Shown here piece by piece: positions 51,176-54,167 of a stretch of DNA of 64,000 nucleotides. The notes below the pieces were generated by a model, which was not told the origin of the DNA, made no database searches, and worked only from the letters and a program-made list of their open reading frames with translations. The position numbers were made by a program, and so were the translations under genes. How positions within the stretch are numbered: the stretch's first letter is position 1; each line of letters opens with the position of its first letter. Source of the stretch: Escherichia phage vB_Eco_QOTSP; sequence record OY720014; one strand, written 5' to 3'.

Positions 51176-51248
51176 TGGGAATTAGCCAAGTTGGTAAGGC
51201 ACTGGATTTTGATTCCAGGATGCAAAGGTTCGAGTCCTTTATTCCCAG
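51176..51248 (+). tRNA. tRNA-Gln (UUG)
   Basis: Cloverleaf: acceptor TGGGAAT/ATTCCCA, anticodon loop TTTTGAT, T-arm AAAGG-TTCGAGT-CCTTT. Confidence 0.85.
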
Positions 51249-51249
51249 C

Positions 51250-51336
51250 GCGAGAATGGTCAAATTGGTAAAGGCACAGCACTTAAAATGCTGCGGAATG
51301 ATTTCCTTGTGGGTTCGAGTCCCACTTCTCGCACCA
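51250..51336 (+). tRNA. tRNA-Leu (UAA), long variable arm, encoded CCA
   Basis: Acceptor GCGAGAA/TTCTCGC, anticodon loop CTTAAAA, T-arm GTGGG-TTCGAGT-CCCAC. Confidence 0.85.
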
Positions 51337-51341
51337 AATTT

Positions 51342-51415
<74 letters not shown>

Positions 51416-51461
51416 ATTTATGACTCGTCGTGAGACGCTCAGTTCTTTATTAGGGACTGAT

Positions 51462-52070
51462 ATGCATTTTTATCTTTATAAAATAACAAATAAAATTAAT
51501 AATAAAATTTATATTGGTGTGCATTCTACCGAAAATTTAGATGATGGATATATGGGTTCTGGTAAATTATTAAAAAGAGCCCAAGATAAATATGGTATAG
51601 AAAATTTTTCTAAAGAAATATTAGAGTATTTTGACGATAAAGAATCTATGCTTGAAGCCGAGAAAAATATTGTCACAGAAGAGTTTTTAAATAGACCAGA
51701 TGTGTATAATTTAAAACTTGGAGGTGAAGGTGGATGGGATCATATAAATAATTATCCTATGACAGATCAGCAACGCGAATTAATTTCATTGGGTGTTAAA
51801 AAGGCGCATTCTAACGGAAAATTAAAAGGATGGTCTTCAAATGGATTAATGAAGAATGGCTTTGCTGGTAAAACTCATTCTCAAGAAGCTAAACGTAAAA
51901 TAGCAAAAGCAAACGAAGCAAAAGTTTCTGCGGATGAAAGAAAAAGAAGAATAGAAATTTCTAAATTATATGATTTTTCTAAACGTGGCGAATTGTCTAA
52001 ATATGCTAAGCATATTGGCGTAAGTCATACTCAAGCAAAAAGAATTCTAAATCAAATTAACAATATATAA
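51462..52070 (+). CDS. segB: GIY-YIG homing endonuclease (SegB-like) inside the tRNA cluster
   Basis: GIY-YIG motif YLYKITNKINNKIYIGVHS; start taken at ATG 51462 (ORF track start 51420 overlaps tRNA-Gly). Confidence 0.8.
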   Translation: MHFYLYKITNKINNKIYIGVHSTENLDDGYMGSGKLLKRAQDKYGIENFSKEILEYFDDKESMLEAEKNIVTEEFLNRPDVYNLKLGGEGGWDHINNYPMTDQQRELISLGVKKAHSNGKLKGWSSNGLMKNGFAGKTHSQEAKRKIAKANEAKVSADERKRRIEISKLYDFSKRGELSKYAKHIGVSHTQAKRILNQINNI

Positions 52071-52076
52071 ATATTT

Positions 52077-52166
52077 GGAGGCGTGGCAGAGTGGTTTAAT
52101 GCACCGGTCTTGAAAACCGGCAGTCGCTCCGGCGACTCATAGGTTCAAATCCTATCGCCTCCGCCA
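52077..52166 (+). tRNA. tRNA-Ser (UGA), long variable arm
   Basis: Acceptor GGAGGCG/CGCCTCC, anticodon loop CTTGAAA, CCA encoded. Confidence 0.85.
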
Positions 52167-52172
52167 GTTTTT

Positions 52173-52248
52173 GCTGATTTAGCTCAGTAGGTAGAGCACC
52201 TCACTTGTAATGAGGACGTCGGCGGTTCGATTCCGTCAATCAGCACCA
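52173..52248 (+). tRNA. tRNA-Thr (UGU)
   Basis: Acceptor GCTGATT/AATCAGC, anticodon loop CTTGTAA, T-arm GGCGG-TTCGATT-CCGTC. Confidence 0.85.
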
Positions 52249-52249
52249 A

Positions 52250-52324
52250 GGCCCTGTAGCTGGAAGGTTCAAGCAAGCGACTCATAATCGCCAGATGGTG
52301 GTTCAATTCCACCCAGGGCCACCA
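52250..52324 (+). tRNA. tRNA-Ile (CAU anticodon; Met-like by sequence)
   Basis: Acceptor GGCCCTG/CAGGGCC, anticodon loop CTCATAA. Confidence 0.8.
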
Positions 52325-52333
52325 AATTAATTT

Positions 52334-52420
52334 GGGGAGTTATCCCGTAGAGGTAGCGGTGTGGACTGTAAATTCATTGTCATTGCGACTCGGGTGGTTC
52401 GACTCCACCACTCCCCACCA
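52334..52420 (+). tRNA. tRNA-Tyr (GUA), long variable arm
   Basis: Acceptor GGGGAGT/ACTCCCC, anticodon loop CTGTAAA, T-arm GGTGG-TTCGACT-CCACC. Confidence 0.75.
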
Positions 52421-52424
52421 ATTT

Positions 52425-52499
52425 GGATGTGTAGCTCAATGGCAGAGCGATCGCCTGTTAAGCGATTGGTTATAGGTTCGAATCCTATCACGTCCGCCA
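52425..52499 (+). tRNA. tRNA-Asn (GUU)
   Basis: Acceptor GGATGTG/CACGTCC, anticodon stem ATCGC/GCGAT, loop CTGTTAA. Confidence 0.8.
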
Positions 52500-52503
52500 A
52501 ATT

Positions 52504-52519
52504 TGTGACAACTGTCACA
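52504..52519. promoter_or_regulatory. perfect TGTGA-N6-TCACA palindrome (CRP-consensus-like) in tRNA cluster spacer
   Basis: TGTGACAACTGTCACA seen directly; function unknown. Confidence 0.3.
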
Positions 52520-52613
52520 TTAATATCTACTTGACGCGATTATAGGGGTTGAACTGATCACTCTTCTCTTAATTTCGTGTGAAGACATCTTGATTGTTGG
52601 AGTAGGTATTAAT

Positions 52614-52689
52614 GTGGCCGTAGTTCAGTTGGTAGAACTCGAGATTGTGATTCTCGTAGTCATGGGTTCGACTCCCATCGGTCACCCCA
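52614..52689 (+). tRNA. tRNA-His (GUG), no encoded G-1
   Basis: Acceptor GTGGCCG/CGGTCAC, anticodon stem CGAGA/TCTCG, loop TTGTGAT. Confidence 0.8.
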
Positions 52690-52693
52690 ATTA

Positions 52694-52769
52694 CGGGGCA
52701 TAGCTCAGAAGGAAGAGCAAGGACCTTCTAAGTCCTAGGTCGTAGGTTCGATCCCTACTGCCTCGACCA
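52694..52769 (+). tRNA. tRNA-Arg (UCU)
   Basis: Acceptor CGGGGCA/TGCCTCG, anticodon stem AGGAC/GTCCT, loop CTTCTAA. Confidence 0.85.
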
Positions 52770-52787: not shown

Positions 52788-53138
52788 ATGAAAGGTAATG
52801 TTTATTTAGTAGTTCATGATTTAACATTTTACTTCAATGAATATGAAAAACATATCTCATTTCGTGAAATTAATTTACTTTATCAACATGCGGATTATAT
52901 TTATATTCAAAACGAATTTGGTCATTGGCAATTTCTCAAAAATCGTTCATTTGGCTTAGATGGTTACGAATACTTTGAACGTAAAGACCTTTTAGATAAA
53001 ATTCCGTTATCTACGCAATATCAAAATCACAAATCTTTATATAAATGCCGTCCAATTCGAAATGTTGAATCCGCGTATGAAGCAATTGATTTATGGCGTG
53101 AACGCCGTAAACAGATTGATGCTTTAAAAGAATATTAA
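52788..53138 (+). CDS. hypothetical protein (116 aa)
   Basis: ORF with GAGGAA RBS directly after tRNA-Arg. Confidence 0.6.
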   Translation: MKGNVYLVVHDLTFYFNEYEKHISFREINLLYQHADYIYIQNEFGHWQFLKNRSFGLDGYEYFERKDLLDKIPLSTQYQNHKSLYKCRPIRNVESAYEAIDLWRERRKQIDALKEY

Positions 53139-53447
53139 GAAACCGGGTCGCTACCGGTAAGTCGTCGGACTGATGTTCCCTGAGTAAGGAATTGCGTTAA
53201 TAATCTTTGCGTTTATTGATGCCCTCTTACATCACAGCAGAAACGGCGCACCGAATTATCGATTCGAGGAAATATCTTTGCCGTAAGCCGAGTAGCGTTT
53301 TTGACGGAACGTTCGGATATGGTCGAGATATGGCCTTTTAAAAATATTGAGTAGCGTCAACTGCTTAATAACCGGGTTCGAATCCCGGCGTTTCGTACAA
53401 ACACTTGCCTTAGCAGGTGGAACCCCGACAAGGTTGCCGCAAGGCTT
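53139..53447 (+). ncRNA. putative small stable RNA(s) / tRNA-like element (ORF-free structured region)
   Basis: About 310 bp with no ORF of 60 aa or more in any frame, several local hairpins, tRNA-like T-arm CCGGG-TTCGAAT-CCCGG at 53372..53388, followed by terminator. Confidence 0.35.
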
Positions 53448-53475
53448 AGCCCCGACCGAAAGGTTGGGGCTTTTT
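53448..53475 (+). terminator. rho-independent terminator AGCCCCGACC-GAAA-GGTTGGGGCT + T5
   Basis: Seen directly; near-identical copy at 54007..54035. Confidence 0.8.
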
Positions 53476-53477
53476 GG

Positions 53478-53485
53478 TATAAATA
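53478..53485 (+). promoter_or_regulatory. late promoter TATAAATA upstream of ORF 53526
   Basis: Exact motif about 40 bp upstream of ATG. Confidence 0.55.
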
Positions 53486-53525
53486 TAGTAGTATATTAAA
53501 TCCACGAATTAAAACAGGAAATAAG

Positions 53526-53999
53526 ATGAAATCATATACTCAATTTTTAAATGAAGCGGTGTTAAATGAAGCATCTAGCACCGAAATTCAAGCTGTCGCA
53601 AAAGCAGCCATTGCAGCGGGTAAATATTCCTATAAAGATGCTTCTGATGAATCGCGATTCCAGTTCGCACGCGACATGAAAGCGGAAGGATTTACGGGAA
53701 ATGCAGTTAGTATGGCCTGGAAAAGTTTAGTTGCTACTGGAGCTGCTTTTGCAAAGGCTTCAGGTAAACCTGCTCCTAAGGCTGACCCTAAAGCAGCACA
53801 AGAAAAAAATATTGCTAAAGGAATTATCTCTAGGTATGAAGCAATTCTTAAAGAACTTTTGATAATTAAGACCGAAGGCCAGAAACTTGCGCGAGCTCAT
53901 AGTTTCAAAGATAATCCACATGCTCATGACCTAGAGTATGTTGAAGACATCCAAAAAATTATTAAAGATCGCATTTGGTCTGCTAAACAAATCAAATAA
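53526..53999 (+). CDS. hypothetical 157-aa protein with CTS-like N-terminus (MKSYTQFLNEA); candidate head internal protein
   Basis: ORF with RBS, late promoter, Ala/Lys-rich. Confidence 0.6.
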   Translation: MKSYTQFLNEAVLNEASSTEIQAVAKAAIAAGKYSYKDASDESRFQFARDMKAEGFTGNAVSMAWKSLVATGAAFAKASGKPAPKADPKAAQEKNIAKGIISRYEAILKELLIIKTEGQKLARAHSFKDNPHAHDLEYVEDIQKIIKDRIWSAKQIK

Positions 54000-54006
54000 C
54001 ATTCTT

Positions 54007-54035
54007 AGCCCCGACCAAAAGGTTGGGGCTTTTTG
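54007..54035 (+). terminator. rho-independent terminator (second copy of GCCCCGACC...GGTTGGGGC + T5)
   Basis: Seen directly. Confidence 0.8.
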
Positions 54036-54167
54036 GTATCTAGGCCTTTCCGGGCCTCTCTAGACATCATTTAGTTTCTACCCTTTATAATATATTATCC
54101 TATCTTTTAATTGCCCCTCCCTGCCCTAGAATTCCCCAAAACTTTTTAAAAATTTTTTCACAAAACA

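Follow-up and report, generated by a model that had tools for sequence, protein, structure and literature searches.

Background

The small RNAs rnaC and rnaD of bacteriophage T4 have been known since the 1970s. In the T4 record (NC_000866) they are annotated as two misc_RNA genes lying directly after tRNA-Arg, namely rnaD ('small, stable RNA; species 2 RNA', 119 nucleotides (nt)) and rnaC ('species 1 RNA', 139 nt). The transcript of the T4 tRNA cluster ends after the species I RNA gene and serves as a precursor of 8 tRNAs plus species I and species II (PMC2330249), and RNAC has more recently been validated by Northern blot, RNAC and RNAD being classed as late-accumulating RNAs (PMC9697503, published in 2022). 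Here we analyse a window of 64,000 nt from Escherichia phage vB_Eco_QOTSP (sequence record OY720014; the window is the whole stretch of DNA that was analysed, and coordinates refer to it unless another record or numbering is named). Judging from its sequence, the segment 53138-53478 of this window is very probably the distal end of the tRNA operon of the phage, in which orthologues of rnaD and rnaC are followed by a 3' trailer and the operon terminator. The stretch is in this sense already known, our finding being a rediscovery of the T4 genes.

Identity of the rnaD and rnaC genes

A first-pass annotation, made from the letters of the window, had described 53139-53475 as a structured region holding a small stable RNA, possibly the counterpart of T4 species 1 and 2, or else a degenerate tRNA. 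The likeness to the T4 species was borne out, although the single RNA implied by that description was not, since the region carries two. The BLAST alignment of T4 rnaC (70908-71046) with 53259-53397 extends over 139/139 nt at 98.6% identity (E = 6e-67), that of nt 4-119 of T4 rnaD (71053-71171; 116/119 nt aligned) with 53138-53252 shows 99.1% identity, and nt 92-435 of the T4 region, running from rnaD through the terminator, match 53138-53480 at 98% identity. Because of these T4 alignments we read the region as two RNA genes already known, followed by a trailer of 49 nt and the terminator of the operon, in the gene order found in T4 (tRNA-Arg, rnaD, rnaC, terminator). The identity of the two genes as counterparts of T4 species 2 (rnaD) and species 1 (rnaC), together with the gene structure, is near certain from the aligned sequences. 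The 421 bases around the region match Escherichia phage slur04 at 100% and there are 806 matching phage records, nearly all of them T4-like and enterobacterial. Several GenBank records label the same sequence rnaC or rnaD. A covariance model of rnaC (R1, described below) found one rnaC copy only in the window (159 bits, E = 1.4e-33). The parts of the region are the following:

53138-53252, + strand: orthologue of rnaD (T4 species 2 RNA), about 115-118 nt, the conserved part beginning AAGAAACC (BLAST to T4)
53253-53258, + strand: rnaD-rnaC spacer of 6 nt, GAAUUA (gap between the RNAs annotated in T4)
53259-53397, + strand: orthologue of rnaC (T4 species 1 RNA), 139 nt (BLAST and covariance model)
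53398-53446, + strand: 3' trailer with two short hairpins, conserved with T4 (alignment at 98%)
53448-53478, + strand: intrinsic terminator of the tRNA/rnaD/rnaC transcription unit (hairpin at 53448-53471)

The two RNAs differ from those of T4 at few positions. In rnaC there are two substitutions, one of which (T4 A105 to G) turns a U-A pair of the P5 helix into U·G. In rnaD the 3 nt before AAGAAACC are unlike T4, the first three nt of the T4 gene being replaced here by the stop codon of the open reading frame (ORF) 52788-53138, and ...CACC is followed by G, where T4 has A. As in T4, rnaD bears the T4-type version of a hypervariable hairpin.

The composition of the segment agrees with what the first-pass annotation had seen. 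It is richer in G and C than its flanks (0.42-0.45 over 53050-53500 versus 0.29-0.36 in the upstream ORF and 0.35 downstream of 53800), and the strong terminator is there (53448-53471, a 10-bp stem with 7 G-C pairs, a GAAA loop and a T-run), as is its second copy at 54007-54030. A protein-coding gene, or a decayed one, has in our judgement scarcely any probability of explaining the region. Such a reading would account for the coding sequences (CDSs) for hypothetical proteins that overlie the match in many GenBank records, and short ORFs of 24-50 amino acids (aa) are indeed present; however, no frame of 53139-53475 holds an ORF of at least 60 aa, as had been noted before (the longest have 50, 44, 34 and 24 aa), the substitutions among relatives track RNA pairing and not codon positions, the middle of rnaD is swapped wholesale for unrelated hairpin sequences, and in T4 Northern blotting showed the products to be RNAs (PMC9697503).

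A tRNA-like fold for rnaC

Comparison of rnaC among relatives points to a 139-nt tRNA mimic, the fold of which is well supported by covariation. We aligned 22 distinct rnaC homologues from about ten Tevenvirinae genera (alignment A2), built the covariance model R1 and realigned the sequences (A4). Positions within rnaC are given in T4 numbering, the window coordinate being 53258 + position. Only the helices that stay in register (acceptor, P4, loop-loop, P5 and T arm, 33 pairs in total) were scored on A4; the 3' strand of P3, the P2 helix and the D-like CCU fall out of register between two sequence types, both with MAFFT and with the covariance model, and were therefore scored by an anchored script. 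In A4, 92.1% of the cells are paired, against 32-44% when the 3' partners are slid by 1-3 columns, and 17 of the 33 pairs have changed on both sides, against 1-3 when slid. None of 500 shuffles reached the observed values on four of the five measures, and 5/500 did so for further pair types. When rnaC was folded alone its minimum free energy (MFE) was -50.2 kcal/mol (z = -4.55, 0/200 shuffles as good) and the architecture was the same as that of the covariation fold, which 17-18 of the 22 homologues also adopt when folded singly. The covariation check across T4-like genomes that the first-pass annotation had proposed hence supports a conserved fold, whose elements are:

53260-53266, + strand: 5' strand of the acceptor stem, CGAUUCG, pairing with CGUUUCG at 53389-53395 (positions 2-8/131-137; covariation and MFE)
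53267-53269, + strand: D-like 3-bp stem, AGG with CCU at 53334-53336, closing the long arm (positions 9-11/76-78; in the MFE fold)
53272-53331, + strand: long arm composed of P2a, P2b, P3 and P4, an irregular hairpin of about 23 bp with loop UUGACG (covariation)
T4 numbering, + strand: P2a 14-20/67-73; P2b 22-27/60-65; P3 30-34/54-58; P4 38-42/49-53; loop 43-48 (covariation and fold)
53301-53306, + strand: P4 loop UUGACG, exact reverse complement of the P5 loop at 53355-53360, CGUCAA (22 sequences)
53345-53370, + strand: P5 arm, a 10-bp stem with the 6-nt loop CGUCAA at 53355-53360 (positions 87-96/103-112, loop 97-102)
53372-53388, + strand: tRNA-type T arm CCGGG/UUCGAAU/CCCGG (positions 114-118/126-130)
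53396-53399, + strand: 3' tail UACA in place of discriminator + CCA (table of tails)

The acceptor stem consists of the pairs C-G, G-C, A-U, U·U, U·U, C-G and G-C, that is, of five Watson-Crick pairs and a tandem U·U. Its pairs 1 and 3 co-vary, pair 3 being A-U in the T4-type copies and G-C in 16 other copies, and in phage PM2 the stem (AGGUUCG/CGAAUCU) is a perfect 7 bp, both U·U having become U-A. The D-like stem is invariant except in PM2 (UGG/CCA). Along the long arm, P2a changes from AUAUCUU/GAGAUAU to UCGUCUU/GAGAUGA in Karamvirus and to UGCCU/AGGCA in PG7, and all five pairs of P4 co-vary, with 100% of cells paired. P5 shows double changes in 8/10 pairs (93.6% of cells paired). The T arm, which lies where the first-pass annotation had placed it, is paired in 100% of cells and co-varies in relatives (CCUGG/CCAGG, CCAGG/CCUGG), its middle pair being G-C, U-A, A-U or U·G according to genus; as in tRNA, this arm (5-bp stem, 7-nt UUCRANY loop) stands directly 5' of the acceptor 3' strand. 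The copies of Marfavirus and PM2 encode UCCA after the acceptor stem.

The acceptor strand deserves attention, as a different possible acceptor partner had originally been proposed, CGGAACG at 53305. Its pairing underlies another reading of the region, in which the 3' 94-95 nt (53304-53397) would be a degenerate or unusual class II tRNA with the acceptor CGGAACG/CGUUUCG, a long variable arm, a Lys-like anticodon within CUUUUAA and an upstream leader of 45 nt. In this phage CGGAACG (53305-53311) can indeed pair with CGUUUCG at 7/7 positions, there is a weak Rfam match to tRNA-Sec (16.6 bits, E = 2), and ARAGORN or annotators have called the same stretch tRNA-Lys(ttt) in G4507, tRNA-Met in PG7 and tRNA-Phe(gaa) in Pet-CM3-4, calls that arise because an internal acceptor of the CGGAACG type is being read. 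The relatives and the energies speak against it. Although 78.6% of the cells of the CGGAACG stem are paired in the 22 homologues, 491/500 shuffles do as well and there is essentially no compensatory change; the same bases belong to the fully co-varying P4 helix and its loop; and the best fold containing this stem has -22.2 kcal/mol against the MFE of -50.2, being 28 kcal/mol worse. The putative anticodon lacks a stem and changes from genus to genus, as it falls in a junction whose sequence and length both vary, and the T4 RNA is annotated at 139 nt, not at 95 nt. ARAGORN and Rfam also reject a tRNA here: ARAGORN found neither a tRNA nor a tmRNA gene in 53139-53475 and no canonical cloverleaf, in agreement with the failure to fold one by eye, and Rfam returned nothing in the region at its gathering threshold, while relaxing the search over 53000-53600 to E values up to 10 gave sub-threshold noise, the best match within the tRNA clan being the tRNA-Sec one at 16.6 bits versus 47 required. 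The scan with Rfam and a tRNA finder thus yielded no family and no tRNA at threshold in the region. Covariation and energy reject the class II model with an internal acceptor, a tRNA of this kind is very improbable, and the partner that covariation gives the CGUUUCG strand is the 5' end of rnaC itself, at 53260-53266.

A probable contact between the P4 and P5 loops

The complementary, co-varying loops of the two arms point to a 6-bp kissing interaction between P4 and P5. The six loop-loop pairs are paired in 99.2% of cells over the 22 sequences, and both loops are invariant in 17/22; in the Marfavirus clade the two change together, from A-U to G-C (UUGGCG/CGCCAA), and PM2 retains 4 bp. The energies calculated for the loop-loop duplexes are -5.5 and -7.6 kcal/mol.

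In Klebsiella phage VPA32 (423-574) the complementarity of P4 and P5 extends past the loops to about 15 contiguous bp, AAAGUAGUUGACGCU with AGCGUCAACUACUUU, and the MFE fold of this single sequence contains the extended duplex and not two hairpins. The duplex of VPA32 may represent an alternative conformation of the kissing-to-duplex kind.

rnaD and its hypervariable hairpin

The 22 distinct rnaD copies compared have in common an invariant 5' portion, about 50 nt long, and a 3' portion of some 22 nt. We describe rnaD as a 5' hairpin followed by a long hairpin with a hypervariable tip, of which two elements can be placed in the window:

53142-53158, + strand: rnaD hairpin 1, ACCGG/GUCGCUA loop/CCGGU (in 22/22 copies)
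53180-53232, + strand: hypervariable apical hairpin of rnaD (alignment and folds; compensatory changes within the T4-type version)

Three hairpins had been named in the first-pass annotation and all three are present, yet they differ in standing. The first, ACCGG-gtcgcta-CCGGT, is hairpin 1 and is backed by covariation, its closing A-U pair becoming G-C or G·U in Mosigvirus and Gaprivervirus copies (G-C in those of Mosigvirus type). The bases of the second, AGTC-gtcg-GACT, are invariant, but in the MFE and consensus folds their partner is the 3' end of rnaD, the invariant GUCGUCG being predicted to pair with CGGCG-AC there. The third, TTCC-ctgagtaa-GGAA, is unconserved and occurs only in the T4-type version of the hypervariable segment. 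A further helix, NGUU/AGCN, co-varies as U-A or A-U (GAU...GCAG versus GAA...GCUG).

The middle of rnaD, about 50 nt long, exists in three unrelated sequence versions among relatives, each of which folds as a long hairpin. These versions cut across genera: a Dhakavirus carries the T2 type, and the Mosigvirus type turns up in Gaprivervirus and Dhakavirus too. Their being common to Tequatrovirus, Mosigvirus, Gaprivervirus and Dhakavirus suggests cassette-like exchange or diversifying selection. A published evolution experiment bears on the same hairpin: one convergent single-nucleotide polymorphism (SNP), at record position 164264, was present in all lines of phage BW-1 adapted to the host ECOR34 and lies in rnaD (PMC12685909). 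In RNA sense this SNP is A to G at nt 74 of rnaD, changing CACAGU-UUU-ACUAUG into ...ACUGUG, and it swaps an apical C·A mismatch for the C-G pair that is present in T2 and G4507. On this structural reading of the SNP, the finding suggests that the apical hairpin of rnaD may matter for host-specific fitness.

Distribution and annotation among phages

Within Tequatrovirus rnaC is extremely conserved, with about 680 of 745 records at 97% identity or more, and rnaD is much more variable (of 735 phage records with a match, 480 stand at 80-90% and 63 at 60-80% identity). The two also occur separately. Dhakavirus copies comprise rnaD without rnaC, and genomes of Karamvirus, Kanagawavirus, Gelderlandvirus, Mosugukvirus, Marfavirus and Moonvirus have rnaC without rnaD, so that, from these sequences, the genes for rnaC and rnaD appear to be independent of each other, with a range of about ten Tevenvirinae genera. 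The unannotated gap between tRNA-Trp and tRNA-Gly in Karamvirus and Gelderlandvirus is taken up exactly by rnaC.

No member of the rnaC family was found outside this phage group in IMG/VR, the JGI metagenomes or 185,579 prokaryotic genomes. Scanning IMG/VR with the pattern GGTTCGAGGA...AACCNGGTTC gave 18 matches, 9 of which (L027-L035) are chance matches in coding DNA, and the metagenome scan added only two further Marfavirus-like copies. The same kind of pattern scan over the 185,579 bacterial and archaeal genomes gave five matches, about the number expected by chance, none of them confirmed by the covariance model, and so no cellular homologue by that pattern; BLAST with the most divergent copy, that of PM2, brought no new lineages.

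Neither rnaC nor rnaD has a family in Rfam. In the GenBank records of relatives both are mostly unannotated; where there is an annotation, it often consists of overlying 'hypothetical protein' CDSs or of a tRNA-Lys(ttt) or tRNA-Met label on the 3' part of rnaC (e.g. L015 346-439; L012 546-640). The hypothetical-protein and tRNA labels over the two genes look like a systematic mis-annotation.

The distribution bears on whether these RNAs act at all once released. They could be structures working only in cis, as processing signals, a 3' stabiliser or a terminator module of the tRNA operon, whose fragments are functionless by-products. A location where the operon ends, immediately ahead of the terminator, suits this explanation, as does the fact that the function has been unknown for 50 years and that the tRNA region of T4 is dispensable in the laboratory. 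Yet rnaC is also found within tRNA arrays, between tRNA genes, where neither the trailer nor a terminator follows it, and in Marfavirus and Moonvirus it has no annotated tRNA neighbours. The separate occurrence of the two genes, with only rnaD in Dhakavirus and only rnaC in Karamvirus, does not fit a common module either, invariant complementary loops and a canonical T loop exceed what a spacer needs, and the adaptive SNP of BW-1 falls in rnaD. Taking these observations together, we regard a role restricted to cis as improbable.

Operon context

Upstream of rnaD, ARAGORN predicts ten tRNA genes, all + strand and spanning 51176-52769, in the order Gln, Leu, Gly, Ser, Thr, Met, Tyr, Asn, His, Arg, and at its gathering threshold Rfam finds nine tRNAs and nothing else in the whole window. 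rnaD and rnaC lie on the same strand just downstream of this cluster and are followed by the terminator. T4 has eight tRNA genes against the ten found here, those for Pro and Ile being absent from this phage. Where 660 nt separate tRNA-Gly from tRNA-Ser here, the related phage NR1 has a segD-like endonuclease gene. Another gap, of 114 nt between tRNA-Asn and tRNA-His (52500-52613), contains the palindrome GTGACAACTGTCAC and a TTGACG motif, and may be a promoter or a processing site between two tRNA sub-clusters.

Two ORFs of this region set it apart from T4. In T4 rnaD begins one nt after tRNA-Arg, whereas here a 351-bp ORF lies between them (52788-53138, 116 aa, phrog_3355), whose stop codon TAA at 53136-53138 overlaps the first bases of rnaD. 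The same arrangement is seen in T2, BW-1 and the Mosigvirus KMB38, and a phrog_3355 gene is found in the Karamvirus tRNA region as well. T4 likewise has a single terminator with no ORF between, as opposed to two terminator copies flanking an extra ORF in this phage (53526-53999, 157 aa, phrog_2280). Both terminators are inside a 36-nt direct repeat (53445-53480 and 54004-54039, 97% identical), and the difference at 53526-53999 looks like the outcome of recombination at the terminator sequence, by which an ORF was gained or lost. Searches with the two flanking ORFs gave no Pfam match, and PHROGs places them only in families of unknown function.

Biogenesis and possible functions

From established knowledge of tRNA processing, rnaD and rnaC would be cut from the transcript of the tRNA cluster, RNase P cleaving at the acceptor-stem base to generate the rnaC 5' end, and exonucleases together with the CCA-adding enzyme finishing a U-ACA or U-CCA tail. 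The cleavage predicted at the base of the acceptor stem agrees with the 5' end annotated for T4 rnaC, and among the non-tRNA substrates of RNase P are tmRNA, 4.5S RNA and phage RNAs (PMC11143913). Maturation of rnaC by the tRNA-processing machinery is hence a sound expectation, and its T loop would be a substrate for TrmA and TruB.

The mature rnaC would then be a tRNA mimic locked by a kissing loop, which might bind or titrate a factor that recognises tRNAs, for instance a host defence that targets tRNAs or a processing enzyme, rather than take part in decoding, and the variable hairpin of rnaD might tune fitness on particular hosts. As a whole, the proposal that rnaC is a non-decoding tRNA mimic binding or titrating a tRNA-recognising host factor, with the variable hairpin of rnaD adapting to the host, is our best guess at a function, though a tentative and somewhat unlikely one. 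A more specific form of it we consider distinctly doubtful: there rnaC would act in trans as a decoy or inhibitor of an anticodon nuclease or of another tRNA-targeting defence, either locked by the kissing loops or dimerised, and the rnaD hairpin would be a determinant of host range under diversifying selection, exchanged as a cassette.

Several points weigh against the structure and the roles proposed here. The acceptor stem has two U·U mismatches in 21/22 sequences and the tail in this phage is UACA, not NCCA, so that processing by RNase P and at the CCA end is something we only infer. For the D-like stem there is one compensatory event, that of PM2. The case for the kissing loop consists of one compensatory event in one clade plus invariance; the contact could be made between two molecules instead of within one, and the bend that would carry the long arm to the P5 loop is hypothetical. 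The fold of rnaD is not clearly better than those of shuffled sequences (z = -1.64, 10/200 as good), and its closing stem is invariant. Deletion of the tRNA region does not prevent T4 from growing on laboratory hosts. The decoy role, moreover, is a conjecture. Our literature search found no paper assigning a function to rnaC or rnaD, and the function of both was called unknown in papers of 2010, 2022 (PMC9697503) and 2025 (PMC12685909). The rnaC fold, the complementarity of its loops and the cassette mosaic of rnaD did not appear in the literature searched, which leaves out work of the 1970s-80s, and a prior description is possible.

Comparison with tRNA, tmRNA and other tRNA-like RNAs

Among known RNAs rnaC comes close to tRNA (RF00005), especially to class II tRNA. 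Both have a canonical T arm, with the equivalent of G53-C61 and a UUCGAAU loop, and rnaC further resembles tRNA in a 7-bp terminal stem directly 3' of that arm, a tail of U plus ACA or CCA, a place inside tRNA arrays and co-transcription with tRNAs. Unlike a tRNA, rnaC is 139 nt long, lacks an anticodon arm, bears a 60-nt arm on a 3-bp stem where the D arm would be, and has a tandem U·U in its acceptor. With the tRNA-like domain of tmRNA, it shares the construction of an acceptor stem and T arm from the two ends of a longer RNA into which a structure foreign to tRNA is inserted, and tmRNA is known as a substrate of RNase P (PMC11143913). It differs in having no tag reading frame, no series of pseudoknots and no G3·U70, and in being about one third the size. 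A reading of the region as tmRNA was tried and rejected, the tmRNA search of ARAGORN giving none and Rfam only a 13-nt match to the permuted tmRNA (10.1 bits versus 47 required), and a Y-RNA-like reading was dropped with no match to an Rfam model at E values up to 10. The bacterial YrlA (Y RNA-like) RNAs and the viral tRNA-like structures also use a tRNA-shaped module for purposes other than decoding, and their likeness to rnaC is one of concept only; the topology of YrlA is different, the ends of that RNA forming a Ro-binding stem and not an acceptor stem.

Placed beside these systems, the comparison adds to a 50-year-old question of function a fold of rnaC backed by covariation, composed of a tRNA-like module and two arms with complementary loops, as well as the independence of rnaC and rnaD, the cassette-like hairpin of rnaD and a published SNP that restores a base pair in that hairpin. 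An Rfam family would be justified and would correct a widespread mis-annotation, and the tRNA-like fold together with the probable loop contact make the function of rnaC easier to test.

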